Position numbers and translations under genes: made by a program. Positions 20,491 through 47,025 of a DNA stretch of 64,000 nt are shown here, piece after piece (position 1 is the first letter of the stretch; each line of letters starts with the position of its first letter). Source of the stretch: Promethearchaeota archaeon Loki_b31 (lineage in GTDB: Archaea > Asgardarchaeota > Lokiarchaeia > Sigyniarchaeales > SOKP01); NCBI GenBank assembly GCA_005222975.1, contig NJBI01000005.1, positions 1-64,000 on the forward strand. The letters run 5' to 3'. The notes beneath the pieces are model-generated. The model searched no databases. It saw only the letters and a program-made list of their open reading frames with translations, and was not told where the DNA came from.

Positions 20491-21258
20491 ATGCAAAACA
20501 AAATTATTATAGAAAAGATAAGAGATTTCTTAGAAAGGGAACGAAAGCACGGAAAGCTCTTGGTCTTTTATCGTTCAGACTCGAATCACACTGCTATTTT
20601 AGATAATTTTGGGATTAAAGTTGAATTGAATAAATTTAAAGAAATCATCCTTGAAGAAGAGACGGGTATAGAACTTGGTGGGATGAAAAAAAAATCCTTC
20701 TCAATAATATTTCCAATTGAAGATGCCCAACTAATCGATACTGGAAAAATAAGTTTATTAGGTCCAGAAATTGATAAATGTTTGGATAAAAATATAGATT
20801 TTGGGATGATGATTTTAATTGGAGTCGAGAACAGCACAGAGAAGGATATAAATGAGTTAAGGCAATTGAGTTTTATCTCTAATGGCATGGAAGGGTTTTC
20901 CATTCGAACTATTCCTCGCAGGTTTTGGTGTAGATTAAGTACATCAACCTTGCAGAAAGGATTTTCATTCGAATTTTTAGGAAATGCTATTATTTCTCTA
21001 TACAAACAAAAATTTAAAGGTTTAGTTAAAACTATAGAAGTTATATTAATCAGTTCATATCCCGATTCTATTAAAAATTTCATTACGCTATCGTCAGAAA
21101 TTACAGATAGGTTTAAAGAAAAATGGAGAAAAAAAATAGAAGAATGGAAAAAGAGGATTGATTGCGATTACGATTGGGGTTGTGAAATATGCCCTTATCA
21201 AGAAGAATGTTTAGATATTAAGCAAGTATTAGTTTTAAGAGAGGAGATTGAGAAATAA
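20491..21258 (+). CDS. Small acetyl-CoA synthase beta-subunit-like (CdhC-related) protein with C-terminal Cys cluster
   Basis: ELGG...SFS, GKISLLGPEID, EGF...R.WCR.S...GFSFEFLG resemble the ACS-beta N-terminal part. C-terminal CDYDWGCEICPYQEEC; next to CooC. Confidence 0.6.
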   Translation: MQNKIIIEKIRDFLERERKHGKLLVFYRSDSNHTAILDNFGIKVELNKFKEIILEEETGIELGGMKKKSFSIIFPIEDAQLIDTGKISLLGPEIDKCLDKNIDFGMMILIGVENSTEKDINELRQLSFISNGMEGFSIRTIPRRFWCRLSTSTLQKGFSFEFLGNAIISLYKQKFKGLVKTIEVILISSYPDSIKNFITLSSEITDRFKEKWRKKIEEWKKRIDCDYDWGCEICPYQEECLDIKQVLVLREEIEK

Positions 21259-29653: not shown

Positions 29654-30694
29654 TTATAAATTAATCAAACAATATTCCACAAACTTTATAGGATCTAAAG
29701 CACATCCGCTTGAATCAAGCCCCCCGAGCTGGTCAAGCAAATTTTGGAGAATATTATTTCCGTTAAGCCACAAATCCTTTAAATTCATTAAAGATTCTAG
29801 CCCTTTTATCTGATTAATTTGATTATTTCCCAAGTCTAATGTCTCTAAATTTTGAAGAGTCTCAAGTCCCTTTATGAAAGTAATCTCGTTCCCCGAAAGA
29901 AATAACTTATTTAATTTCGTTAACGAATATAATCCGTTAATCTCGTGAATTTTATTATCTTTTAAATTCAAAACTTGTAAATTTTTACAGTTATCTAGAC
30001 CTTTAATCAGTTCAATTTGGTTTGCCGTAATCCACAACGTTTCTAACTGAGTAAGAGAATCTAAACCTTTTAATTCTTGTATTTGGTTATCATTTAGATA
30101 TAATTCCTTTAAATTTTTCAGATTTTTAAGCCCCTTAATGCCAGTTATTTGATTACCTGCCGTATTCAAAACTTTCAAATTTTTTAGATCTTCAAGTCCT
30201 TTAAGTTTTGTTAGCTGATTTCCAGCAAGCCAAAATACTTCTAAATTCTGTAATTCAAGCCCTTCTACATTACTAATTAAGTTCCAAGACAAATCTAATT
30301 TTTGAAGCGAAGTTAAAGAATTAAGCCCGCTCAACTGATTAATTTGATTCCCTCTTAAATATAATTCATTTAACTCAGTAAGATTATCTAGCCCATTTAT
30401 TTCTGTAATTTGATTTGATGCTAAATGCAAGATTTTTAGGTTTACTAATTCTTCTAATCCCGAAATTTCGGTAAGATTATTGCTTCCACAATTTAATATT
30501 TCTAGGTTCTGAAGCGTTTCTAATCCTTTTATTTCCGTAATCTCATTTGAACTAAGTTCTAGATGAGTTATATCAACTTTGTCTAAACCTTCAATTTCAG
30601 AGATATCTTTAATTTCTAATAAACCAAGATCTAGAAAACCATCCTTAATTTCAAATTTTTCGTTCTTATATTCAACAAATTTCATGCGCTTCAC
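29654..30694 (-). CDS. Leucine-rich repeat protein, SDS22-like
   Basis: About 13 repeats of the 22-aa LxxLxLxxNxIxxIxGLxxLxN unit. Confidence 0.93.
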   Translation of the reverse strand: MKRMKFVEYKNEKFEIKDGFLDLGLLEIKDISEIEGLDKVDITHLELSSNEITEIKGLETLQNLEILNCGSNNLTEISGLEELVNLKILHLASNQITEINGLDNLTELNELYLRGNQINQLSGLNSLTSLQKLDLSWNLISNVEGLELQNLEVFWLAGNQLTKLKGLEDLKNLKVLNTAGNQITGIKGLKNLKNLKELYLNDNQIQELKGLDSLTQLETLWITANQIELIKGLDNCKNLQVLNLKDNKIHEINGLYSLTKLNKLFLSGNEITFIKGLETLQNLETLDLGNNQINQIKGLESLMNLKDLWLNGNNILQNLLDQLGGLDSSGCALDPIKFVEYCLINL

Positions 30695-32452: not shown

Positions 32453-32601
32453 AATAAAAAAATTTATCTGAAATTAAAATTTTTCAACGATTTGCCATTC
32501 TTACTAGTTATTTTTAAGAACTAGTTGATTTTTATAGATTTTGGATATTGCCAGAAAATCTTAAGAATAAAATTATAAGTGTAACTACTTTCTTATATTC
32601 T

Positions 32602-33309
32602 ATGACTGAAGCATTATACATGAAAGATTCCTATTTAAAGAATTGGAACGCTAAAGTTGTTTCTGTAAAAGATGATAAATATATTATCCTTGATAAAACA
32701 GCTTTCTATCCTAAAGGAGGTGGCCAACCATGGGACGAGGGTTATATAATTAAAGACGGTGATAAATTTAAGGTTGTTTATGTAGGTAAATTTTCTGGGG
32801 AAATTAGCCACGAAGTAGAAAAACCGGGATTAAAAAAAGGAGACTTGGTTACATGCGAAATCGATTGGGAAAGGCGATATACCTATATGCGTTATCATAC
32901 TGCTTGCCATCTCGTCTCAAATCTACTATTCCGAAGAGCGAACGCTAAAATCACAGGCAACCAGATTGAATTAGATAAAGCAAGAATGGATTTCTCAATG
33001 GAGGATTATTCTCCTGAGAAATTACATACTTATGTTAATGAAGCAAATGAAATTATCCAAAAAAATCTACCTGTTACAATTGGTTATTTATCTCGAGAAG
33101 AGGTTTTACAAAAACCAGAACTAGCTAGATTAGCAATAGGATTACCGAAAAACATTAAGGAATTTCGTATTATTAAAATTGGAGATATAGACGAACAAGT
33201 AGATGGTGGAACGCATGTTAAAAATTTGAATGAAATTGGCGAAATTGAAATCATTAAAACTGTTAATAAAGGAAAAAATAATCGAAGAATGTATTTTGTT
33301 ATAAAGTAA
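32602..33309 (+). CDS. alaXM: AlaX-M alanyl-tRNA editing protein (ATG at 32602 preferred over track start 32548)
   Basis: LDKTAFYPKGGGQPWD, RYHTACH, DGGTHV (HxxxH...xxxxH Zn site). Confidence 0.9.
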   Translation: MTEALYMKDSYLKNWNAKVVSVKDDKYIILDKTAFYPKGGGQPWDEGYIIKDGDKFKVVYVGKFSGEISHEVEKPGLKKGDLVTCEIDWERRYTYMRYHTACHLVSNLLFRRANAKITGNQIELDKARMDFSMEDYSPEKLHTYVNEANEIIQKNLPVTIGYLSREEVLQKPELARLAIGLPKNIKEFRIIKIGDIDEQVDGGTHVKNLNEIGEIEIIKTVNKGKNNRRMYFVIK

Positions 33310-33874: not shown

Positions 33875-34315
33875 TTAAAAAAAGATTCTAAGAAAATTAT
33901 CCACCACTTCAATTGTTTGATCTTCCCTACCTGACTTAGGAAAAACCTTATTTAATAAATAAGTTTCAATTTCCATCACATCAAGACCGACTAGCTTATT
34001 TTCTGCTGTTTTTATTATGTTGTTAATAATTTTAGCAGCACTAATGATAGTTGATTGATCAAGTCCTAGAACATTTCTAAATCGAGAAGCAATAATTTCT
34101 TTTAAAGCACCAACATCTACATCAAAGGACAGATAAAAATTTGATTTCAATGTATCCTTTAGGATTTGATTTAATTTATCTAGCATTTGTGAAGTTTCTG
34201 CTTTGGGTATGAATTTAACACCGTTTCTTTCCATTTTATCATAGAACTCAACAAATTCTACAATTCTTGGATCATTTAAAGCTCGATATTTTTGATCTGG
34301 ATAATCTTGACATCC
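33875..34315 (-). pseudogene. 3' fragment of an arginase/ureohydrolase family gene
   Basis: The frame extends upstream to GCQDYPDQKY... and contains FYLSFDVDVG and GLDVMEI. The N-terminal half is absent and the fragment ends at a junction near 34315. Confidence 0.7.
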
Positions 34316-34758
34316 TTTTAATTGGAGTCAATAAAAGTGAAATAGAAAATGATGAATTAAGGCAATTGTCTTTTATCTCCAATAGCATTGAGGGTTTTCT
34401 AATAAGAACAATTCCTCGGAGATTTTGGTGTAGAATAAGTTCCAATACATTACAACACAATTTTTCATTTGAATTTTTAGGAAATGCAATCTTTCATCTT
34501 TATCACCAAAAATTTGGAAATTTGATCAAAGCTATGGAAATATTCTTTATCAACACATATACAGATTCAATAGGACATTTCAAAGAAATCTCTTCCGAAA
34601 TAACAGCACAATTTGCCAAGAAATGGAAAGCCAAAATCGAAGAATGGAAAAAAAGGGTTGACTGTGAATATGCTTGGGCATGCCAAATTTGCCCCTATCG
34701 AGAAAACTGCTATTATGTTAAAGAAGTTCTAATTAAGAGAGAAGAATTAGGAAAATGA
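34316..34758 (+). pseudogene. 5'-truncated paralog of the ACS-beta-like gene 20491-21258
   Basis: ELRQLSFISN..EGF.IRTIPRRFWCR...CEYAWACQICPY. Similarity to 20491 starts abruptly at TTTTAATTGGAGTC (about 34316). Confidence 0.8.
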
Positions 34759-34857: not shown

Positions 34858-35835
34858 TTAAATGTTAAACATGTCGTCATACATATCGTCTTCTTCTCCC
34901 TCTTCTCCCTCTTCACCCTCTTCTAGTTCAACCCCGTACCAATATTGCTCTTGCGCTTTCGTCTTTCTTTTTATTTTCTTTCGTTCTTTGTATTTTGGTT
35001 TTTCGTCATAGCGTTTAGTATAAATTTTTTCGTATTTTGCTCTTAAAGCTTCTACATCTTCAACTTGTCCTATTTTCTCTTGTAAACCATCTTCAAAGAA
35101 ATAATTTCTTTTAAATTTTTTTGCTGGAATTCCTACGTAGATATAACCATCCTCGAGTTTTTGATCTACCGTTGTTATTGAATTAGCAGCTAAGACGCTT
35201 CTTTTTCCGATATAAGTACCAGGCATGATTATTGCGTGAGATCCAATTCTAACATCGTCTTCAATAATAGTTCTCTTAATTATGAGGAGATTACCGATAA
35301 TTACACTAGATTGTACAATTGCTCCTTGACCAACAACAACGTTTTTTCCGAACGAAATAAATTCAGTATCCACCCAGCCTTCAAATAAAGAGTTTGAAAA
35401 TTTTGTCTTTACACCGAACACTTTAAAGCAAATATTGTTTAAGAAAGGAAAAGGAAATCGATGACTTAACCAAAATGGCCATCTTTTTATTATATTCCTA
35501 ATACACCAATACCGATAATCCTTATCGCTTGGATGTCTTAAAAATATGCCAACTTGTGGCTTGTGAATGACATTAACGGCCATAAATAAGATTTTGGCAA
35601 TAAAAATTGCACTAAATACAAGGGTAATATACATTGGTAGAATTACAAGAGGTAGGAAAGTATAAAAGTGAATCGGTCTACTATAATTCCACAAAAATCG
35701 CCAATAAACCCAAAATTCTAAAAAAACAGGAATAAAACTGAACCAAACAATAATTAGATAGAAAAATAAATATCTTTTCTTTACTAAAACTGTCGGTATA
35801 AATGGACCTATGCGCATAGTATTAGGAATTGACAT
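34858..35835 (-). CDS. Membrane protein with left-handed beta-helix (hexapeptide) domain, module C, copy 1
   Basis: Two TM helices, then FGKNVVVGQGAIV / IEDDVRIGSHAII / IGKRSVLAANS and YVGIPAK; acidic EEG tail. Confidence 0.85.
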   Translation of the reverse strand: MSIPNTMRIGPFIPTVLVKKRYLFFYLIIVWFSFIPVFLEFWVYWRFLWNYSRPIHFYTFLPLVILPMYITLVFSAIFIAKILFMAVNVIHKPQVGIFLRHPSDKDYRYWCIRNIIKRWPFWLSHRFPFPFLNNICFKVFGVKTKFSNSLFEGWVDTEFISFGKNVVVGQGAIVQSSVIIGNLLIIKRTIIEDDVRIGSHAIIMPGTYIGKRSVLAANSITTVDQKLEDGYIYVGIPAKKFKRNYFFEDGLQEKIGQVEDVEALRAKYEKIYTKRYDEKPKYKERKKIKRKTKAQEQYWYGVELEEGEEGEEGEEDDMYDDMFNI

Positions 35836-35837
35836 TT

Positions 35838-37676
35838 CTACCCTTCATTATTTTCCGTTTTTATTAATTTCTTTTTATCCTCATCAATATTAACTTCGTG
35901 TGTCATCTCAACTTTCACTTGCTCGTCAACATCGCGCTTTATTATAATATCTCTTCTCTCTTCGGCATATTTATTTTCTTTAAGTTTAATTCCGGGAATT
36001 CCAAAATATATCCAATTTGGTTCTAAAATTTGATTATATGTAGTTGTACTGATAGCGCCCATAACCGAATCGTGTCCCATTATCGTGCCAGGCGCGATAG
36101 TGGTGTGACCACCAATCATAACATAATCGTCAAATATAACCTTTTTAATTATTAAGTATTTGCCGACTACCATTGAGGACATTATTGTTGCTCCTTGTCC
36201 AATTAAATTATTTCGCCCAAAGTTTACAAATTCGGCATCGCACCACGCATCGTTTAAATGACTCGAAAGATCCATATTTATTCCAAACCATTTAAACGCT
36301 ATTACATCTACCCAGGAAAATGGAGAATTTCTAATTAGCCAGAGGCTGATCTTTTTTAGTTCTGTTCTCAACATCCAAAACTCGTAATCTTTATCTCCAA
36401 TTTCAGCGATAAAAATACCTTCTCGCGGTTTATGTATTAAATTTACAAGAATTAAAAGCAATTTACTAAAAAATAACACTCCGAAGATGAATATGTACAA
36501 CATAGAAAAGATTGCGACTGGTAAAAACAAAATCATTATTAACCCAAAATATCGTGTACATTCATACCAATAAATCGCAACTAATAAACCGCTTAACCAG
36601 AAAATGGGAATATATACTGCCAAAAATTTAACATTTACTCTGCTAATAGCGCTACTAGTAGTAAAATCTAATGCTAGATCTTCTTTTGTAAGACTCTCTA
36701 TATCAACTGGTTCTTCTTTTTCCTGCTTAATCGTAAAATCTTCTTCAAGTTCTTCTTTAATTTTTTCTTTAGTTTTGTCTTTTTTATTTTTTGTAATAAA
36801 ATCATTAAGAGAATCGTTTCGCTCTAAGTCTTCAGGTGTCAAACCTAAATAATCCATAATTTTTTTTTTAAAAATTTTTCGCAGGGGGATTCCTACATAA
36901 TATTTCCCTCCTTTTAATACGCTGTGTTTCGTACATGAAGCTAAGGGTAATAAAAAAGAATCTTTGCCAATTTCGGTTCCTGGACCTATTTGATTCATCG
37001 CAGCGAGGGTAACGTTGTCTTTCAGCTTTATTTCGAAATAGGATATGTTCCCGAAGATGCCCTGCACTAAATGAGACGCTAACGTAGAGTTTACGCCGAT
37101 ATAACAGTTTTTCCCAACATCAATGAATTTATCTGATCCAACAGATTCTTCAATTGTGGACCCTTTTCCAATTTTGCTTGAGCGGGTAAAATTAAAAAAC
37201 CAATTGGAAAGCCAAGGGATCATTCCTTTGGTAAATACATTTTTTCCATATTTTATCATGAAACTTCTCATATGATAATAATTTGCCGTCTTACTTTGTA
37301 TGTTTCTTGGGATTATTCCATTTTTTGAAGGGGACATTTTTTCAGTAATACTCCAACACAATTTTGTTGCTAATCCAATGAATAATAGGTGTATAAGATA
37401 ACAAACTATTATTAAAAGCGGCATTAAAATCAATGAGAGGAGGGGATACAGTTCTGTGAAAAGCATAACAAAATTGCTGGTTTCTAAAAAGTATTTTCGA
37501 AAAATCATAAAAAAATATGCCATTAAGATAATACCAGGGATTATCCAAGAGGAATAGTAAATAACAGCAAATATCAATATGTAGATTTTAAATTGTATTT
37601 TCACGGTTTCTTTAATAACGGCTTCTTGAGAATCCTCTGATTCATCCAATGATTCTGGTTTTATTTTTTCAACCAT
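35838..37676 (-). CDS. Membrane protein with two TM+LbH modules (A-B fusion), copy 1
   Basis: The N-half matches 41897-42847 and the C-half matches 40983-41894; hexapeptide repeats in both halves. Confidence 0.85.
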   Translation of the reverse strand: MVEKIKPESLDESEDSQEAVIKETVKIQFKIYILIFAVIYYSSWIIPGIILMAYFFMIFRKYFLETSNFVMLFTELYPLLSLILMPLLIIVCYLIHLLFIGLATKLCWSITEKMSPSKNGIIPRNIQSKTANYYHMRSFMIKYGKNVFTKGMIPWLSNWFFNFTRSSKIGKGSTIEESVGSDKFIDVGKNCYIGVNSTLASHLVQGIFGNISYFEIKLKDNVTLAAMNQIGPGTEIGKDSFLLPLASCTKHSVLKGGKYYVGIPLRKIFKKKIMDYLGLTPEDLERNDSLNDFITKNKKDKTKEKIKEELEEDFTIKQEKEEPVDIESLTKEDLALDFTTSSAISRVNVKFLAVYIPIFWLSGLLVAIYWYECTRYFGLIMILFLPVAIFSMLYIFIFGVLFFSKLLLILVNLIHKPREGIFIAEIGDKDYEFWMLRTELKKISLWLIRNSPFSWVDVIAFKWFGINMDLSSHLNDAWCDAEFVNFGRNNLIGQGATIMSSMVVGKYLIIKKVIFDDYVMIGGHTTIAPGTIMGHDSVMGAISTTTYNQILEPNWIYFGIPGIKLKENKYAEERRDIIIKRDVDEQVKVEMTHEVNIDEDKKKLIKTENNEG

Positions 37677-37859
37677 TTTTTATCATGTGAAAAGTAATGA
37701 TAAGCTAATAGATAAATTCTTTTTATTATTTACTCAGTCAAATATTACACATTAGTAAAATAGATATGTTTTTTACTTTTTAAATTTATATTAACAACAA
37801 AACAGCCAAAACGATTAAGAGCTAACCTTAATATCACACAAACTAATAGAAAAAATAAC

Positions 37860-38258
37860 ATGAAGAATAGATGTGAAGATTGTGGAAATTGCTGTATCGA
37901 GACAGAGATGATTCTCTCTGACCAAGACATCGAAGCTATCGTTAGTAGTCATAAAACAACCTTAAGAAAAACAGATTTTGTACAAAAAAATGAAGATAAC
38001 TTTAATCAATTAAAAAATTTTAACGGACATTGCTTCTTTTTCGATGGAGAAACAAAATTATGTAAAATTTACGAGATAAGACCTCAAGGATGCCGATTTT
38101 ATCCTTTAATTTACGATTCAGATAAGAAATCATGTGTTTTTGATAGCGAATGTCCACGACCAGAACTTTTTTATCCAAATAAGAATACAGTTCGAAGAAC
38201 TTGCAAAAAGATAATAAGTTTCTTAGAGAACCAAGTAATTTTTTCTAAATTACGATAA
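37860..38258 (+). CDS. YkgJ family (CxxCxxCC) cysteine-cluster protein
   Basis: CEDCGNCC...CFFF...CKIYEIRPQGCRFYP. Confidence 0.88.
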   Translation: MKNRCEDCGNCCIETEMILSDQDIEAIVSSHKTTLRKTDFVQKNEDNFNQLKNFNGHCFFFDGETKLCKIYEIRPQGCRFYPLIYDSDKKSCVFDSECPRPELFYPNKNTVRRTCKKIISFLENQVIFSKLR

Positions 38259-39252
38259 TAGTTTTTATATAATCTCGGTTTTTCTCGTAAGAAACAAAAG
38301 CTTCTTGAATATAATTTAACGCATACTCTTTAGAAATTAATCCTTTAACCTTAACTTTTCCTGAACTTAACCCTTCAATAGCTTTATCAAAGGGACCACA
38401 TCTACTGCTGTAAATAGTAATTTCCCTGACCACAATATCGGTAAAATTAATTAGAGTTTCTAACCCGTGAGTACTTTTTATGTGGACTTTTCCACGCGTT
38501 TTACACGAAGAAACAACATCCTTTAGGGCATCTAGGTTTCCTGTAGTATCAACAACGATATCAGCTCCAATGTCTTTTGTTAATTCTCTAATTTCAGTTT
38601 GTATATCTTTTACATTCAAACGATTAATTGAATAGTGTGCGCCAAACTTTTTAGCTAAGGCAAGTTTTTTATCTGAACCGTCAATTACAATTAACTTTAA
38701 TCCTTTTAATAACGCAACTTGAGTTAGCAATAAGCCTAACTTTCCAAGACCAAAAATTGCAACAAATTTATCGTCTTTTTCTATAGGCATCATTTCAAAA
38801 GTTTGATAGGCTGCGGCTAACGGTTCGATAAAGGTAGCTTCTTCGTAAGAAATCTTTTTCGGTAATTCGTGTATCAAATAAGACTCGACAGCAATGAACT
38901 CCGCGAACGCTCCATTGATATCGATCCCTAAAGCTTTTCTAGAGATACATTGTGTAAACATGTCTCGTTTACAATAATAACATTCAAAATCAATGTTACT
39001 ATTAATTTCTGAAGTCACTCGTTTACCTAGCCAAGTGCGGGCTACATTTTTCCCTACTTCTACAATTTCACCAGCAAATTCGTGCCCTAATATGAGTGGG
39101 ATGGTAGTTGGAAGATATCCACTTACTATTGCTATATCCGTGCCACAAATTCCCACAGCTTTTACTTGGATTAAAACTTGAGAATCCTCAGGCTCAGGTT
39201 TAGACACTTCTTTAATAGCAATTTTGTGCCCATCAAATACAGCAGCTTTCAT
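38245..39252 (-). CDS. Zinc-dependent alcohol dehydrogenase (MDR, threonine-dehydrogenase-like); start probably MKAAVF at 39252
   Basis: GICGTD, LGHEFAG, IEPLA, GLGKLG. Confidence 0.9.
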   Translation of the reverse strand: MKAAVFDGHKIAIKEVSKPEPEDSQVLIQVKAVGICGTDIAIVSGYLPTTIPLILGHEFAGEIVEVGKNVARTWLGKRVTSEINSNIDFECYYCKRDMFTQCISRKALGIDINGAFAEFIAVESYLIHELPKKISYEEATFIEPLAAAYQTFEMMPIEKDDKFVAIFGLGKLGLLLTQVALLKGLKLIVIDGSDKKLALAKKFGAHYSINRLNVKDIQTEIRELTKDIGADIVVDTTGNLDALKDVVSSCKTRGKVHIKSTHGLETLINFTDIVVREITIYSSRCGPFDKAIEGLSSGKVKVKGLISKEYALNYIQEAFVSYEKNRDYIKTIIVI

Positions 39253-39271
39253 GTTTTGAATCTTTTTAAGA

Positions 39272-40057
39272 TTATTGAAGATAGAACTCTGGTCTTCTAT
39301 CATTTAGTATATCATTATAACTATTAAGTTTTTTATCTCTTGTGTGGATTACATCAATTTCTATAAATTTAATATAGACTTTATCCATTGGTGCGGACGA
39401 GAGTATGTCCCCATTATAAGACGTGATTTGGCTTCCCCCCGTAAACTTAAAATCGTCTTCTCCCCTTACTTCGTTGCCAATTCTGTTAGAAGTTACAGCA
39501 AAAACGCGATTTACCAAACAATGAGTAGTCATAGCTTTTTGGCAATACGGAAGTACTAAGTTAGCGGGATGCGCAATGATATCGGCTCCAAGAAGCGTGA
39601 GCGTACGAATTGTCTCCGGAAAAAACCAATCGAAACAAATCATTATTCCGATTTTCACATTGTTTACTTCATAAATTCGTAAAGGCTTGTTTCCAGGAGA
39701 GAACCATAGGCGTTCTTTATAGTATAGATGGATTTTCCTATATGTGCCAATAACTTCATTTTTTGAAACTATCATCGCAGAATTGAATATTTCATCGCCA
39801 TCTTTCTCAATAAATCCTCCAATTACGACCCCACCTGTATCTTTTGATAATTTCTTTAGAAATTGAGCGGTTTGCCCGTTAATGTCTTCCGCTAAGGATT
39901 CAGCTTCTTTTTTAGAAATGAAAGCGTAACCTGTTGCGAAAAGTTCAGGTAATACAATTAAATCTGCTTTGGTATTGCTTAATAAAATCGTTACTTGTTC
40001 AAAGTTTTGAGTTTTTTCGCTAAAGGTTGGAGAGGTTTGAACATAACCAATTTTCAT
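39272..40057 (-). CDS. Nitrilase-family amidase/acyltransferase
   Basis: VLPELF, YRKIHL and ICFDWFFPE catalytic triad; 2 nt downstream of the LbH module C gene. Confidence 0.92.
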   Translation of the reverse strand: MKIGYVQTSPTFSEKTQNFEQVTILLSNTKADLIVLPELFATGYAFISKKEAESLAEDINGQTAQFLKKLSKDTGGVVIGGFIEKDGDEIFNSAMIVSKNEVIGTYRKIHLYYKERLWFSPGNKPLRIYEVNNVKIGIMICFDWFFPETIRTLTLLGADIIAHPANLVLPYCQKAMTTHCLVNRVFAVTSNRIGNEVRGEDDFKFTGGSQITSYNGDILSSAPMDKVYIKFIEIDVIHTRDKKLNSYNDILNDRRPEFYLQ

Positions 40058-40059
40058 GA

Positions 40060-40986
40060 TTAATCCTTTTCTTCAGTTTTTTCTATAGTTATTTCTTCGG
40101 ATTTTTCTTTTCTTATGTGAATTCTTCTTTCTTTGAGAGGTATTTTTTTTTTAACTTGCCGTTTAACATATTGTTCGTCGTATTTCTTTAATAATCCGTC
40201 AAGGTCTCCAATGGTTTTAGTAAGTTTTTCGAGTGGAATGTCTTCGAAAAATCTATTTTTCTTGAATTTTTTCGCAGGACCCCCATTGTACACCCAACCT
40301 TCTTCTAGTTCTTGACCTACCATTGTAGACGACCAAGTGTTTAAAATACAGTTTTTTCCTATATGGGTGCCTGGCATAATTATTATATGTGCGCCTATTC
40401 TAACGTTTTCTTCAATGATAGTTTTTTTAATGATTAAAAAGTTTCCTATAATAACTGAAGATTGTATTATAGCGCCCTGGCCAACAACTACATTTTTACC
40501 GAACTCAATATATTCAGTATCCACCCAACCTTCAAAAAGCGAGTTAGAAAATTTTGTTTTTACACCAAATACCTTGAAACAAATATTGTCTAAAAATGGA
40601 AAGGGAAATTTATGCGCGAGCCAGGTTGGCCACTTTTTAATTGTATTTCTAAGACTCCAATATCTATAATCCTTGTCTGCGGGATCCCTTAGAAAAACGC
40701 CTTCTCTTGGTTTGTGAAAAACATTAACTATAATTAATAAAATTTTAGCAAAGAATATCGCAGCAAACACGGTTGTGATGTACATTACAATGAAAAAAAG
40801 AGGTAAAAACACGTAGAAATGAAGTGGTCTTATATCATACCACAACATTTGCCAATACCACCAAATTTCCAATATCGCAGGAAGTAGACTTATCCATATT
40901 AAAAAAATATACATAAGCAGATACTTTTTCTTAGCCAGTACGGTTGCACAAAAAGGACCTATGCGCATTGAATTCGGAACGCTCAC
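40060..40986 (-). CDS. Membrane protein with LbH domain, module C, copy 2
   Basis: Close paralog of 34858-35835 (MS.PN.MRIGPF, DKDYRYW, FSNSLFEGWVDTE). Confidence 0.85.
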   Translation of the reverse strand: MSVPNSMRIGPFCATVLAKKKYLLMYIFLIWISLLPAILEIWWYWQMLWYDIRPLHFYVFLPLFFIVMYITTVFAAIFFAKILLIIVNVFHKPREGVFLRDPADKDYRYWSLRNTIKKWPTWLAHKFPFPFLDNICFKVFGVKTKFSNSLFEGWVDTEYIEFGKNVVVGQGAIIQSSVIIGNFLIIKKTIIEENVRIGAHIIIMPGTHIGKNCILNTWSSTMVGQELEEGWVYNGGPAKKFKKNRFFEDIPLEKLTKTIGDLDGLLKKYDEQYVKRQVKKKIPLKERRIHIRKEKSEEITIEKTEEKD

Positions 40987-41894
40987 TTTTTAACGCCTCC
41001 CTTTTTTCTTCTAAATAAATGTTTTTTATCTTCGTCGATATTAACTTCGTGCTCTACCTCAATTTTTTCTTCTTCGTCAACATCTACTTTTTGTATAATA
41101 TCTCTTCTCATTTCAGCGTATTGATTAGGTTTTAATTTTCTAGCCGGAATACCTGAATATATCCACCCGTCTTCTAGTTTTTGATTAAGAGTGGTAACTG
41201 ATACCGCACCTAAAACAGTATCTTTTCCAAAGTGAGTTCCAGGGGCAATCGTGCTCTGCCCTCCAATAAGAGCGAAATCTTCGAAAGTTATTCTTTTAAT
41301 GATTAGATAATTACCTACTACCATTGAGCTCATTATTACTGCCCCTTGACCGATAGTTACGTTGCTTCCAAACTTAATAAATTCAGCGTCACACCAGGCA
41401 TCGTTCAAGTGGCTTGAGAAATCCATACTTACTCCAAACCAACGAAATGCTATTACATCTATCCAAGGTAAAGGCCAGTTTCTTATTAGCCACAAAACAA
41501 TCTTCTTTATTTCGGTTCTTAACCTCCAAAATTCAAAATCCGTGTCTCCCTTCTCAGTTCGGAATATTCCTTCTTTGGGAAGGTGAATTAAATTTATTAA
41601 AATTAACAGAAGCTTACTAAAAAAGAAGCAACTAATAATAAATAGAAATGTGAACGCTAACAATAAAAGTGGTAAAAATAACAATTTAATTATCCATGGT
41701 AGTTTGCTTACAGTGTAGCCGTACCAAAAAGTTGCTACAATAATACCTGAAAACCAAAAAATTGGTAAATATACTATTAAAAACTTAAGACTAACTCTGT
41801 TTATAGCAGAACTTGTAGTAAAATCAATATTAAAGTCAGAGTCATCATCTATGTTTTCAGGACCTTTATTTTCATCTTCTATAGTTTCAGCCAT
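40983..41894 (-). CDS. Membrane protein with LbH domain, module B, copy 2
   Basis: DFTTSSAI.RV, HLNDAWCDAEF and IMSSMVVG are shared with the C-half of 35838-37676. Confidence 0.85.
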   Translation of the reverse strand: MAETIEDENKGPENIDDDSDFNIDFTTSSAINRVSLKFLIVYLPIFWFSGIIVATFWYGYTVSKLPWIIKLLFLPLLLLAFTFLFIISCFFFSKLLLILINLIHLPKEGIFRTEKGDTDFEFWRLRTEIKKIVLWLIRNWPLPWIDVIAFRWFGVSMDFSSHLNDAWCDAEFIKFGSNVTIGQGAVIMSSMVVGNYLIIKRITFEDFALIGGQSTIAPGTHFGKDTVLGAVSVTTLNQKLEDGWIYSGIPARKLKPNQYAEMRRDIIQKVDVDEEEKIEVEHEVNIDEDKKHLFRRKKGGVKK

Positions 41895-41896
41895 TT

Positions 41897-42847
41897 TTAT
41901 CTCACGCCTTTATTTTTTATTTTTTTTTCATTTTTTTCAGCTTCTTTTTTTATCCTCTCTAACTTTGCGTTTTCTTGCTTAACTCTTAAGTCTTCAGCCT
42001 GAACTAAATTATCTTCGTTAACCTTTAAATAATCCATAATTTTCTTTTTAAATATTCTACGCAAAGGCAAGCCAAAGTAGTAATTATTTCCTTTTAACAA
42101 ATTATGCTTAGTTGCTGCTGCCATTGGCAATAGATAGGAATTATCTCTTAGGTCGCAACCAGGGGCAATGTTATTAAAACCCCCTAAAGTAACATTTTCT
42201 CCTAGCTTTATTTCAAAGTACACAATATTTCCGAAAATCCCCTCAACAAAATGGCTAGAGAGTGCCGAATTAACGCCAATATAGCAGTTTTTTCCGATGT
42301 TTACATTTCTATCCGTAACTACTGATTCTTCGAGCGTAGAACCCTTTTTAATTACGCTGGTTCCTACAAAATTAAAAAACCAATTTGCTAACCAAGGAAA
42401 TATTCCTTTCATGAAAGCATTTTTTCCGTATTTAATCATAAAGGATCTTATATGGTATAAATTAGCAGTTTTAGAAGGGATGTTTCTTGGAATAATGCCA
42501 TCTTTACTAGGTGAAATTTTTTCCGTATATCTCCAGATAATTCGCGAGATCAAACCTACTAAAAATAAGTGGATCAAATAGCTCACAATAAGAACTAACG
42601 GTAAGGCTAAAAAAGATAGTAAAGAATCAAGGTTCGTAAAGACAACAAACAGGTTATCTACCCTTAAAAAGAGTGGGATAAAAACTAATAAGACATACGC
42701 CATAAAAACAATTCCCGGTATTAAATATGAACAATAGTATATAACAAAAAAGATACTCAAATACCAATGGAATTGGAGTTTAATTTTTTCTTTAGCAACT
42801 TCACCATCAGAGTCACTCATATCAGGCGGTTCAATTTCGTCTAACAT
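41897..42847 (-). CDS. Membrane protein with LbH domain, module A, copy 2
   Basis: PSKDGIIPRNI, GKNCYIGVNSALSSHFVEGIFG are shared with the N-half of 35838-37676. Confidence 0.85.
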   Translation of the reverse strand: MLDEIEPPDMSDSDGEVAKEKIKLQFHWYLSIFFVIYYCSYLIPGIVFMAYVLLVFIPLFLRVDNLFVVFTNLDSLLSFLALPLVLIVSYLIHLFLVGLISRIIWRYTEKISPSKDGIIPRNIPSKTANLYHIRSFMIKYGKNAFMKGIFPWLANWFFNFVGTSVIKKGSTLEESVVTDRNVNIGKNCYIGVNSALSSHFVEGIFGNIVYFEIKLGENVTLGGFNNIAPGCDLRDNSYLLPMAAATKHNLLKGNNYYFGLPLRRIFKKKIMDYLKVNEDNLVQAEDLRVKQENAKLERIKKEAEKNEKKIKNKGVR

Positions 42848-43296: not shown

Positions 43297-46200
43297 ATGT
43301 CTGAAAATTCGTTTTCATTAGTAGATTTGTATCCAAAATATGTAATAAACTCGAAAGGAGAAAAGAAAAAATTCGAAGTTACTAACATAGCAAAAGTATT
43401 AAACAAAGAAACTGGTCTTGATATGCACATTGCGGAAAAAGTTACAGAAGATGTAGTTCGAATAATTATTGGTCTAGGAGTTGATGAGATCACTACTAAT
43501 TACATTAGAGAATTAGTATGTGTCGAGCTAACCCAACGAGGTTTAAATAAATACCGAAATCTATTCGCCCGAGCTATCAATTTGGAAAACATATCTTTCA
43601 CGTTAGACGACAATTTTATTGCTAAATTTATAGGGAAACAACCTGATTGGGGGCCTTTAGGGCACATCACATACAAAAGAACTTACGCCAGAGTTGTAGA
43701 AGGAGAGAACAGAAAAGAAGAATTCTGGGAAACGATCAAAAGAGTTGTCGAAGGTTGTTATTCAATCCAAAAAGAGCACTGCATTAAGTTAAGTTTACCT
43801 TGGACCGATGCTAAAGCTCAGAATTCTGCTCAAATAATGTATGAAAAAATCTGGAATTTTAAGTTTTTACCTCCAGGAAGAGGTCTTTGGATGATGGGGA
43901 CCGAATTTATCGCACGTCACGGTTCCATGTCGCTTAATAACTGTGGTTTTGCCTCTACCGACGATATTAACTTAAAATACTCGAAAGCGTTTCAATTTGT
44001 GATGGATGCGCTAATGTTGGGTGTGGGGGTAGGTTTTGATACGAAAGGAGCGGGTAAAATTACAATTAAAAAACCTATAGAAGATCATTTTACTTTTCAA
44101 ATACCCGATAGTAGAGAAGGTTGGGTGGAAGCACTTAAACTTGTTATAGAAGCGTATTTTTTAGGTAAGCGAATTCCAAAGTTTGATTTTAGCTTAATCA
44201 GGTCTGCAGGTCAGCCAATTAGAGGCTTTGGAGGGATTGCCAGCGGTCCAGACCCTTTAAAGGATATGTTGATGAATATTCAAAAGATTTTAGAAGCTCG
44301 AATTGGTCAATCAATAAGTTCACTTGACATTTTGGATATTATGAATCTCATTGGAAAATGCGTCGTCGCTGGAAATGTTAGGCGTAGTGCTGAGATTGCA
44401 TTAGGGGAAGCCACCGATTTAGAGTTTATAAAGTGCAAACAAGACAAAGAAAAACTTTATTCGCATAGATGGGCAAGCAATAACAGTATATTTGCAAAAA
44501 AAGGATTAGACTATTCTTTCATAGCAGATCAGATTTCCGTGAATGGAGAACCGGGAATTCTTTGGTTAGAAAACGCAAAAGCGTATTCTCGAATGGGAAA
44601 CCCACCAGACCATAAAGATAAGAAAGCTGCGGGCGTGAACCCTTGCATTACAGGTGATACATTGATTGCTGTCGCTGATGGTAGGAATGCTGTAGCAATA
44701 AAACTATTGGCAGAAGAAGGAAACGATGTTCCTGTGTACTGTAAAGATGATAAAGGATTAACAGTAATAAGAATGATGAGAAATCCAAGAATTACAGGCT
44801 ATAATGAGAAAATATATGAAGTAAAATTGGATGATGATAGTATAATAAAATGCACAGGAAATCATAAGTTTATTTTAAGGAATAAAACATCTAAAGAAGC
44901 TAGAGAATTAAGAAATGGAGATAGTCTAATGATAACGCCAAAATGGCAGACAACTTGGGCAGAGATAATGGGAGAAGAAAAGAAGAAAAGATCAATTTAT
45001 TGGATGTTAAATAATGGAATGAAAAATACTTTCGAACATTCATTTATTTATGAACAATTTAATAAATGTAAAATTCCCAGTGGGTATGTTCTCCATCATA
45101 AAGACAAGGATGGTTTGAATAATAGAAAAAGTAATTTAGAACTTATGCTAAAGGATGATCATGATTCTTTACACGATATATCAGGTGATAAAAATCCTAT
45201 GCGTATTTGGTATCCCCATGCTACTCCTGAAGAAAAACAACAATATCATCAAAGGATGTCGAAAGCTACTTCCGGTACCAAAAACCCAAGATATTCTGGA
45301 ATCTCTAATGAGCAAATTTATAATGAGATGATTTCCTATATCAAAAGAACAAATGAACCATTAACTATTCCCGCTTGGAAAGAATATTCAAAAGAAATAG
45401 GATTAATATCTTCTTTTACTGAATTTCGTGGTTCATTATTGAATTTCATTAAAAGAGCGAATATTGAATCTGGATTTGAACATTTAGATAACCCAGCTCT
45501 AATGAGAGAATATAAAAAATATATTAATTTACTGAAAGAAAGCGATCTTGAGTTAATTTTTGAAGATGGTATGTTTGTTGTAAAATATTGTGCATTATGT
45601 AGAAGGGAATTTAAAGTAAAATATGGCAGACGAGAGCAAGCTTATTGTTCACATAAATGTGCTAATAAAATAGCTGCAATTAAGGCAGGCGCAGCGATGA
45701 AAAATAAAGGAAAAAGAAATCAACAAGAAGCTAGAAGAAAATTATGTCAATTATTTGCTCAATATATTTATGAACAAAATGAGGTTCCTCAGTTAGCTGA
45801 TTTCTTAAAGTTTATTAAAGAAAATGGAATCAACGATTTTAGAACTGCTGGAATCTATAAAGGTTATCAATATGTAATGGATAAGATCACTGAGAAATAT
45901 GTTTGTCAAAGAATCTCTGTTCGCTCATTAAGTAAACATCAGTATAGGCAACAAATGGCACTAAAACTAAAAGACTGTGGTCTATCTTATAACCATAAAG
46001 TTGTATCAGTTAATTATATTGGGGAAACTACAGTTTATAACGGCACAGTCGATGATTTCCATAATTATGGAATTATTCTAACTGAAAAAGAAACTAAATC
46101 AGGTAGACCAAAACTTGAAATGATTTTTACTGCGAATTGCGGAGAACAAACACTAGAGTCATTCGAGCTTTGTTGTTTGGTTGAAACCTTCCCTTCAAGG

Positions 46201-47025
46201 CATGAATCATACGAAGAGTATCAAAACACTCTAAAGTACGCTTATTTGTATGCCAAATCTGTTACGCTCGTAAATACGCATTGGCAAGAAACTAACGCAG
46301 TGATGCTTAAGAATAGGCGAATGGGAATTTCACAAACAGGAATAATTGAAGCTTTTGTGAAATATGGGAGAAGGACTATATTAGACTGGTGCGATAAAGG
46401 CTATAAATATTTACGAGAATTGGACGAGGAATATTCTGATTGGTTGTGCGTCCCAAAATCGATAAAAATTACTACGGTTAAACCGAGCGGAACCGTTAGC
46501 TTACTTCCGGGAGTCACTCCTGGAATTCATTATCCTCATTCAGAATACTATATTAGAAGAATTCGCATTTCGAAGAATTCTGATTTGATAGAACCCATTA
46601 AAAACGCGGGTTATCGCATAGAGGACGATTCTTATTCTCCTAATACTATTGTAGTCGAATTTCCCGTCCACGAACAATTATTTGAACGTTCCAAGGACGA
46701 TGTTTCCATATGGGAACAAGCGGAAAATGCCGCAGACTATCAAAAATATTGGTCCGACAACCAAGTATCAATTACGATTACATTTAAGCAAGACGAGGCA
46801 AAACAGATTAAACACGTGCTGGAGTGCTTTGAAGATAAGCTAAAAAGCGTGAGTTTTTTACCGATTAAAGAACACGGTTACAAACAAGCTCCTTACGAAG
46901 AAATCACAAAAGAAAAATTCGAGGAAATGGTTTCAAAACTTAAACCTTTAGATTTGGATAAAACAAAAGATAGAGCAATAGGAAGTAAGTTTTGTGATTC
47001 GGAGGCTTGTGAAATTAAGCTTTAA
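43297..47025 (+). CDS. nrdJ: Class II (B12-dependent) ribonucleoside-triphosphate reductase with N-terminal ATP cone, intein-containing
   Basis: YKRTYAR, PPGRGLW, LNNCGF, GNVRRSAE, NP/CGEQ active site, TVKPSGTVS, C-terminal CDSEAC. Confidence 0.95.
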   Translation: MSENSFSLVDLYPKYVINSKGEKKKFEVTNIAKVLNKETGLDMHIAEKVTEDVVRIIIGLGVDEITTNYIRELVCVELTQRGLNKYRNLFARAINLENISFTLDDNFIAKFIGKQPDWGPLGHITYKRTYARVVEGENRKEEFWETIKRVVEGCYSIQKEHCIKLSLPWTDAKAQNSAQIMYEKIWNFKFLPPGRGLWMMGTEFIARHGSMSLNNCGFASTDDINLKYSKAFQFVMDALMLGVGVGFDTKGAGKITIKKPIEDHFTFQIPDSREGWVEALKLVIEAYFLGKRIPKFDFSLIRSAGQPIRGFGGIASGPDPLKDMLMNIQKILEARIGQSISSLDILDIMNLIGKCVVAGNVRRSAEIALGEATDLEFIKCKQDKEKLYSHRWASNNSIFAKKGLDYSFIADQISVNGEPGILWLENAKAYSRMGNPPDHKDKKAAGVNPCITGDTLIAVADGRNAVAIKLLAEEGNDVPVYCKDDKGLTVIRMMRNPRITGYNEKIYEVKLDDDSIIKCTGNHKFILRNKTSKEARELRNGDSLMITPKWQTTWAEIMGEEKKKRSIYWMLNNGMKNTFEHSFIYEQFNKCKIPSGYVLHHKDKDGLNNRKSNLELMLKDDHDSLHDISGDKNPMRIWYPHATPEEKQQYHQRMSKATSGTKNPRYSGISNEQIYNEMISYIKRTNEPLTIPAWKEYSKEIGLISSFTEFRGSLLNFIKRANIESGFEHLDNPALMREYKKYINLLKESDLELIFEDGMFVVKYCALCRREFKVKYGRREQAYCSHKCANKIAAIKAGAAMKNKGKRNQQEARRKLCQLFAQYIYEQNEVPQLADFLKFIKENGINDFRTAGIYKGYQYVMDKITEKYVCQRISVRSLSKHQYRQQMALKLKDCGLSYNHKVVSVNYIGETTVYNGTVDDFHNYGIILTEKETKSGRPKLEMIFTANCGEQTLESFELCCLVETFPSRHESYEEYQNTLKYAYLYAKSVTLVNTHWQETNAVMLKNRRMGISQTGIIEAFVKYGRRTILDWCDKGYKYLRELDEEYSDWLCVPKSIKITTVKPSGTVSLLPGVTPGIHYPHSEYYIRRIRISKNSDLIEPIKNAGYRIEDDSYSPNTIVVEFPVHEQLFERSKDDVSIWEQAENAADYQKYWSDNQVSITITFKQDEAKQIKHVLECFEDKLKSVSFLPIKEHGYKQAPYEEITKEKFEEMVSKLKPLDLDKTKDRAIGSKFCDSEACEIKL
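44644..46137 (+). mobile_element. Intein (498 aa) with HNH homing endonuclease, inserted in the RNR NP^C active-site motif
   Basis: Begins CITGDTLI; block B CTGNHKF; HNH motif HHKDKDGLNNRKSNL; block F VYNGTV; ends IFTAN before Cys+1. Removal restores GVNPCGEQ. Confidence 0.93.

Follow-up and report, generated by a model that had tools for sequence, protein, structure and literature searches.

Paired three-module gene sets in a Lokiarchaeal genome belong to the membrane beta-helix superfamily of poly-amino-acid synthetases

We analysed a stretch of 64,000 nucleotides from the genome of Promethearchaeota archaeon Loki_b31 (GenBank assembly GCA_005222975.1, contig NJBI01000005.1, positions 1 to 64,000; hereafter the window; G+C content of ~31%), which carries two sets of genes that each encode three membrane modules, termed A, B and C. 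Each module joins two transmembrane (TM) helices to a left-handed beta-helix (LbH), and the three-module sets (triads) belong to the same 2TM-LbH superfamily as the terminal domains of the Pls/PosA poly-amino-acid synthetases, with which they very probably share an architecture. The window triads are probably a new kind of membrane acyltransferase. On balance, and by no wide measure, we favor the view that each forms a 1:1:1 membrane heterotrimer whose one active site, contributed by A, passes an acyl group from a coenzyme A (CoA) thioester to an amine or hydroxyl of a membrane-associated or translocated acceptor.

RESULTS

Two triads with one module anatomy

The two triads are made up of five genes, given here in the order of transcription.

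41897-42847, minus strand: A2, module A of triad 2; two TM helices, linker and LbH, with the histidine motif SSHFVEG
40983-41894, minus strand: B2, module B of triad 2; serine in place of the histidine (MSSMVVG)
40060-40986, minus strand: C2, module C of triad 2; QSSVIIG; GTG start codon, within a 4-nt overlap with the end of B2
35838-37676, minus strand: A1B1, a natural A+B fusion; module A at ~36747-37676 (ASHLVQG), module B at 35838-36746 (MSSMVVG)
34858-35835, minus strand: C1, module C of triad 1; start 2 nt past the A1B1 stop codon

Transcription on the minus strand runs through A2, B2 and C2, then through the genes for a carbon-nitrogen hydrolase and an alcohol dehydrogenase (ADH), and then through A1B1 and C1, with a divergent gene for a CxxCxxCC protein standing between ADH and A1B1. 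The genes are tightly coupled: gaps of 2 nt lie between A2 and B2, between C2 and the hydrolase gene, and between A1B1 and C1, and B2 overlaps C2. Hydropathy plots gave two long hydrophobic segments for all modules, followed by Hexapep repeats (PF00132), which scored above the gathering cut-off of 27 bits in C1 (41.8 bits), A1B1 (39.0 bits) and C2 (37.6 bits) and just under it in A2 (26.8 bits) and B2 (21.4 bits). In alignments, and in an hhalign comparison over 178 columns, the modules showed the defining elements of the 2TM-LbH type, namely, a two-helix membrane hairpin, a PxxxG(x)[FYI] turn, two linker helices, and an LbH ending in G-x-P-A-x-K. Like modules of the two triads were 57% (A1 and A2), 61% (B1 and B2) and 63% (C1 and C2) identical by BLASTP; across module types, identity was 37 to 39% for B versus C and 21 to 31% for A versus B or C.

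A preliminary description of this DNA, made from the sequence alone, had proposed two operons of three [2 TM + LbH] modules in the order A-B-C, a histidine solely in module A, and no nonribosomal peptide synthetase (NRPS) front end. The coordinates of the open reading frames (ORFs), their hydropathy and their Hexapep matches agreed with the first proposal in every detail, the motifs of A, B and C were as described, and the ORFs gave no AMP-binding or PP-binding match.

The conserved histidine

We read the histidine column in one alignment of 66 modules. All 13 single-module relatives (proteins of 220 to 300 aa from bacteria and archaea, with two TM helices and an LbH) had the residue, as did all 11 Asgard modules of the A clade (A, the A' modules of a second triad type described below, and a lone A-like gene on contig C64), and it was present in none of the B, C, B' and C' modules. 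In Pls/PosA, whose terminal modules are called Pls C1 to C3 here, the motif QTHLF(E/H)DR is invariant in Pls C3 only, and the histidine of Asgard A falls in the same alignment column. Most of the bacterial three-module proteins have one histidine-bearing module, the middle one. The residue three positions after the histidine was E, Q or D in nearly all histidine-bearing modules. The pattern across the 66 modules indicates that A keeps the ancestral site and that B and C lost it; moreover, because A alone keeps the histidine that is invariant in single-module relatives and Pls C3, the complex would have a single catalytic site.

Relation to poly-amino-acid synthetases

The Pls/PosA synthetases make epsilon-poly-L-lysine and delta-poly-L-ornithine and are described by the NCBIfam model TIGR02353. 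This model was the top NCBIfam match for C1, C2 and B2 (37 to 41 bits) and the second for A1B1 (45.7 bits), and it scored 54 bits against P0247, a natural three-module chain, with a cut-off of 423.1; A2 had no match to it at an E value of ≤1. The matches of the window genes were limited to the LbH part, and the model also found matches in 13 of 14 control genomes. Taken alone, the TIGR02353 match to the window genes is weak evidence of kinship. The link to Pls is strengthened by bridging bacterial proteins of 650 to 690 aa with three modules, which match both the Asgard profile (E values of 1e-30 to 1e-44) and TIGR02353 (157 to 184 bits over two or three stretches reaching into the membrane parts). 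Among them are P0323 (Omnitrophota), P0341, P0375 (MBK8576353.1; Elusimicrobia) and P0366, in which a short-chain dehydrogenase/reductase (SDR) is fused to three modules. When the Asgard module profile was compared with the bacterial three-module proteins by hhalign, the match reached 99.2% (E value = 2.7e-19), its 178 columns spanning TM2, the PxxxG(x)F turn, the linker helices and the LbH to its end. The comparison with genuine Pls/PosA terminal domains, represented by four annotated genes from Rhodococcus, Sphingomonas and Kitasatospora plasmids, gave 97.7% (E value = 2.5e-12) and was best to module Pls C3. Furthermore, P0341 was collinear in alignment with the Pls/PosA terminal domains.

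Triads and Pls/PosA share a set of three [2 TM + linker + LbH] modules, for which a single pseudo-threefold domain is predicted, and both have the histidine in one module of the three, in the same alignment column (QTHLFED in Pls/PosA and SSH[LF]V[EQ]G in the triads). They differ in that Pls/PosA is a single chain behind adenylation (A) and thiolation (T) domains, whereas the window modules are split over two or three genes without either domain, and in that the histidine module is last in Pls/PosA and first in the gene order of the window triads. The bacterial three-module proteins resemble the triads in having three 2TM-LbH modules and no NRPS front end but are single chains and form a separate clade. 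The preliminary description had likened the window genes to the terminal condensation region of poly-amino-acid synthetases. This likeness stood as homology, through the profile matches given above, and fell as membership of the Pls/PosA family, since the scores fall far short of the model cut-off, the A and T domains are missing from the ORFs and the triplication is a separate one. No relative of A1B1 longer than 1,072 aa was found, which is weak evidence that NRPS-fused Asgard forms do not exist, and in the literature we found no paper on stand-alone or archaeal forms.

Origin of the triplication

In the module tree, all Asgard modules formed one clade (Shimodaira-Hasegawa approximate likelihood ratio test [SH-aLRT], 100), dividing into A versus (B, C). 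Pls C1 to C3 formed a clade of their own (SH-aLRT, 96), and the bacterial three-module proteins formed another. The Asgard modules stood apart from the Pls clade and branched together with single-module proteins and the bacterial stand-alone forms. A grouping of the histidine-bearing modules of the three lineages as one clade, prompted by the histidine pattern and tested after the tree was seen, was rejected by the approximately unbiased (AU) test (delta lnL = 129, p-AU = 2e-5). Tree and AU test together reject one ancient triplication shared with Pls and make that of the window triads independent of Pls/PosA. Because they keep the lineages apart, heterotrimers with one catalytic subunit would have arisen at least three times from single-module ancestors. 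Two-module sets, found in a sister family and on contig C17 of the window's own genome, look like intermediates. A profile search of 1.84 billion representative proteins returned 7,520 2TM-LbH relatives at an E value of ≤1e-3 and 126 at ≤1e-30.

Conservation among Asgard genomes

We searched 151 genomes sampled across the phylum and read 14 triad loci from ten genomes gene by gene. All 25 sampled genomes of the window's family and both of those of the sister family (f2) gave strong matches, with 2 to 15 matches per matching genome; outside these two families, the sampled genomes gave weak generic LbH matches only. The order A-B-C, whether the three genes were separate or A and B were fused, was kept in 13 of the 14 loci, in line with the co-conservation expected in the preliminary description. 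The fixed module pattern is not due to chance. C2 had 708 homologues and A1B1 had 428 (length range, 336 to 1,071 aa), and all 120 of the latter that were listed were fusions of 590 to 646 aa. The named homologues of C2 and A1B1 were all proteins of Asgard metagenome-assembled genomes (MAGs), none of them characterised. The NCBI names Thor-, Hod-, Hermod- and Odinarchaeota stand on some proteins with 62 to 69% identity; they clash with the family-restricted distribution and may be mislabels.

Elsewhere in the window's genome, contig C82 carries a second triad type, C17 a pair of modules and C64 the lone A-like gene. At 1.2 kb upstream of the C17 pair, an MFS_2 sugar-type transporter is split into abutting ORFs of 117 and 345 aa (G000:C17:49005-50396; L112 5006-6397), possibly by a frameshift or an assembly error.

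A second triad type and natural fusions

Triads of the C82 type consist of a C'-A' fusion (~520 aa) followed by B' (~250 to 300 aa) and were present in 13 of 13 genomes examined; in seven of these, a divergent acyl-CoA dehydrogenase adjoins the triad. In the module tree, B' clustered with B and C' with C, which indicates that the two types are paralogous sets with cyclically permuted gene order. A cyclic permutation keeps the ring arrangement the same. P0247, a 797-aa protein from a Promethearchaeota metagenome, was among the relatives returned by the profile search and is a natural C'-A'-B' single chain. The natural fusions found were of three kinds, A-B, C'-A' and C'-A'-B'.

Predicted structure

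The AlphaFold2 model of P0247, built on an alignment (A6) tiled from C'-A' and A-B fusions, had a predicted local distance difference test score (pLDDT) of 83.2 and a predicted template modelling score (pTM) of 0.84. Two earlier candidate alignments of the three-module chain made with MAFFT (A3 and A5) were dropped, as they set the C'-A' fusions on the wrong module. In the model, each of the three modules has two long helices, a short strand, two helices and an LbH, and the PosA terminal domain has this same order of elements in its published model (PMC10522769). In that work, AlphaFold and RoseTTAFold placed six bent membrane helices under three five-turn LbHs, whose packing resembles a sugar-nucleotide acyltransferase trimer (PMC10522769). 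The packing of the three modules in P0247 is suggested by the pTM alone. Six helices, in three pairs around three LbHs, are predicted to make up one pseudo-trimeric domain in P0247 and would do so by extension in the window's split genes. The expectation that the modules fold together was borne out for this natural chain, which modelled as one confident unit. The A1B1 fusion on its own modelled poorly (pLDDT, 56; pTM, 0.40) and was left out of the fold search. Foldseek against the Protein Data Bank (PDB) returned soluble LbH acetyltransferases alone, which spanned a single module each (query-normalised TM-score, ≤0.15), and the whole architecture was not found among solved structures in the PDB, either by sequence or by Foldseek.

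These models bear on a different account of the triads, in which A, B and C would each form a homotrimeric membrane acyltransferase of its own, the three enzymes acting in series on one substrate and being co-inherited through a shared pathway. This account would suit the usual homotrimeric state of LbH enzymes, which the single-module relatives presumably share, and the existence of sets with two or four modules. It is nevertheless improbable: B and C lost the histidine kept by every single-module relative, A-B, C'-A' and C'-A'-B' fusions are common, the three-module chain models as one confident unit, and a 1:1:1 ratio is kept together with the order in 13 of 14 loci. The 1:1:1 heterotrimer fits these observations better.

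Other known LbH systems

The best matches of the LbH part to solved structures were the CoA-dependent acyltransferases AntD (3VBI), maltose O-acetyltransferase (1OCX/4ISX) and galactoside acetyltransferase (1KRU). Soluble LbH acyltransferases are trimers with active sites at the subunit interfaces and CoA thioesters as donors. Unlike the triads, they are homotrimers with three equal sites and no membrane helices, and they cover ~15% of the three-module model. The gamma-carbonic-anhydrase (gamma-CA)/CA-like complex of plant and protist mitochondrial complex I offers another likeness, being a membrane-attached LbH heterotrimer of diverged paralogues in which most sites are degenerate; it differs in its metal-site chemistry and in being peripheral, without helix hairpins of its own, and it is not closely related.

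The triads could also be no acyltransferases at all but degenerate LbH scaffolds, for example, a gamma-CA-like or transport-associated membrane module. Gamma-CA families do occur among the weaker matches, the mostly inactive heterotrimeric gamma-CA module of complex I is a precedent, and archaeal single modules adjoin Atg22/major facilitator superfamily (MFS) and OPT transporters. We hold this to be very unlikely, given that a triad of metal-binding histidines is missing, that CoA-dependent transferases give the best matches in both sequence and fold, and that a histidine and an acidic residue are conserved as in Pls C3. An acyl-transferring heterotrimer remains the account that we prefer.

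Gene neighbours and the donor

Three further genes stand beside or between the window triads.

39272-40057, minus strand: carbon-nitrogen hydrolase (nitrilase/amidase type), 2 nt after C2
38245-39303, minus strand: Zn-dependent ADH (homologues of 335 aa)
37860-38258, plus strand: CxxCxxCC protein (YkgJ-like, PF03692), divergent from A1B1-C1 and a recurrent triad neighbour

The hydrolase is probably in the same operon as triad 2, and, given the length of the homologues, the real start of ADH is probably the methionine at ~39252. Nitrilase and/or ADH genes occurred near triads in 6 of the 14 loci (five genomes): a nitrilase also lies next to the triad in genomes G071, G113 and G049, and the full run of triad, nitrilase and ADH was found only in G071 and G113, which are of the same genus. 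A clear homologue of the CxxCxxCC protein (48 to 62% identity) stands beside triads in six loci, with a weak match (29%) in locus L017. DUF1295, a steroid-reductase-like protein, follows a triad in three genomes, and other neighbours are UvdE, HypF, PfkB and tRNA synthetases. Single modules of Poseidoniales come after an Atg22-type MFS transporter, and archaeal single-module relatives adjoin Atg22/MFS and OPT transporters. These contexts, together with that of the Elusimicrobia three-module gene described below, lean toward acyl or lipid metabolism and transport; they fix no substrate.

In the genome, which is 92% complete, there was no PP-binding and no phosphopantetheinyl transferase (PPTase) match. 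Because neither a carrier protein nor a PPTase was matched, free acyl-CoA is the most likely donor. The genome has 18 AMP-binding genes, none adjoining the window triads, and AMP-binding genes were near triads in 2 of 28 Asgard loci. The preliminary description had allowed for stand-alone adenylation and carrier domains; the search for them turned up the AMP-binding genes and no carrier domain. A stand-alone condensation-like ORF of 463 aa elsewhere in the genome (G000:C48:49504-49899; locus L129) matched the NRPS condensation domain at 44.6 bits over profile positions 29 to 169.

Donor supply is also where a true Pls-like polymerase has to be weighed. Here, the triad would join amino acids, or another bifunctional monomer, iteratively and extrude the polymer through the helix bundle, with the activated monomer supplied in trans, for example, by stand-alone AMP-binding enzymes (as aminoacyl-AMP or aminoacyl-CoA) or as aminoacyl-tRNA. 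The only characterised members of the superfamily, to which the triads are homologous, are polymerases (PMC10522769), the single-histidine asymmetry is as in Pls, the genome has its 18 AMP-binding genes, and the amidase of the operon could act like the polymer-degrading peptidase beside some Pls genes. In addition, an AMP-binding gene follows the three-module gene of an Elusimicrobia MAG (JADKCG010000022.1; L033 7063-13276), whose operon encodes an SDR, the three-module 2TM-LbH protein, a 722-aa AMP-binding enzyme and a glycosyltransferase and may be the best context in the superfamily for guessing a substrate. Against a polymerase stand the failure of the genome to give a T-domain or PPTase match, the scarcity of AMP-binding genes near Asgard triads, the branching of the Asgard modules away from the Pls clade, and the several paralogous triads in each genome, an unusual situation for a single polymer synthase. 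We judge this alternative unlikely and retain the acyltransferase heterotrimer.

Other genes around the triads

A class II (B12-dependent) ribonucleotide reductase of 1,242 aa is encoded at 43297-47025 (plus strand) and contains an intein of ~490 aa with an HNH endonuclease; its orthologues in G071 and G049 have 744 to 748 aa and no insert, and that in G135 has 1,147 aa and contains it. An AlaX-like trans-editing protein at 32548-33309 (plus strand; the C-terminal part of tRNA-synt_2c plus tRNA_SAD) also lies close to the triads in four related genomes, probably through synteny alone. A 255-aa protein in G071 matches two places in the window, namely, 20491-21258 (plus strand) and, through its C-terminal 147 residues, a 163-aa ORF at 34267-34758 (plus strand); this ORF has a partial CdhC match and seems to be a truncated copy of a paralogue. 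At 29654-30694 (minus strand) is the gene for a leucine-rich-repeat protein (LRR_4, 175 bits), whose homologues are found close to triads in related genomes.

DISCUSSION

In the mechanism that we favor, A, B and C would assemble 1:1:1 into a membrane-embedded pseudo-threefold heterotrimer, in which six long membrane helices (three hairpins) bear three cytoplasmic LbHs packed as in ordinary LbH trimers. Subunit A would supply the sole catalytic histidine, followed three positions later by an acidic or amide residue, and B and C would serve in a structural or substrate-shaping role. The chemistry expected from homology is an attack on a pantetheine thioester by the amine or hydroxyl of an acceptor, and the acceptor would probably be membrane bound or passed through or along the helix bundle. 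We infer the heterotrimer, its one active site, CoA as the donor and an acceptor in the membrane.

Several observations weigh against this proposal. The pTM of 0.84 comes from a paralogous fused protein of the second triad type rather than from the window genes themselves, and the model was built on a shallow, tiled alignment of 45 rows. The triad rule is broken by the C17 pair and the lone C64 gene in the same genome and, as the sole exception to the order A-B-C, by the f2 locus, which has A and one B/C-like gene. Two genomes have A-A-B-C sets (L024 7163-9042 in G071 and L025 15058-16922 in G113), and these tandem-A sets are the closest relatives of the window's triad 2, which has one A. Some bacterial three-module proteins have the histidine in all three modules, and some LbH transferases function with no catalytic histidine. 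Finally, the gene context of the triads held no consistent donor-activating or acceptor-making partner, and neighbours as inconsistent as nitrilase/ADH, CxxCxxCC protein, acyl-CoA dehydrogenase and DUF1295 indicate neither a donor nor an acceptor.

The 2TM-LbH module defines a large, almost wholly uncharacterised superfamily, whose bacterial and archaeal members are encoded by single genes, pairs or triads or as fused chains. To our knowledge, the polymerising domain of the poly-lysine synthetases has so far been seen as a peculiarity of one small NRPS family, and we know of no solved structure for it. Because every sampled Lokiarchaeales genome has such modules, their product is likely to be important to the envelope or membrane of the closest archaeal relatives of eukaryotes. 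As a speculation that we hold with considerable doubt, Lokiarchaeal cells may possess several paralogous, NRPS-independent Pls-type membrane machines, born of a triplication of their own, that either make and export a novel polymer or transfer acyl groups to lipids of the membrane or to molecules of the cell surface. Either role, if true, would constitute a new class of archaeal envelope-building enzyme and would make the poly-lysine polymerase just one offshoot of a large membrane LbH enzyme family. Moreover, the split Asgard form, with its separate subunits, would be a tractable system for learning how the Pls-type domain works.

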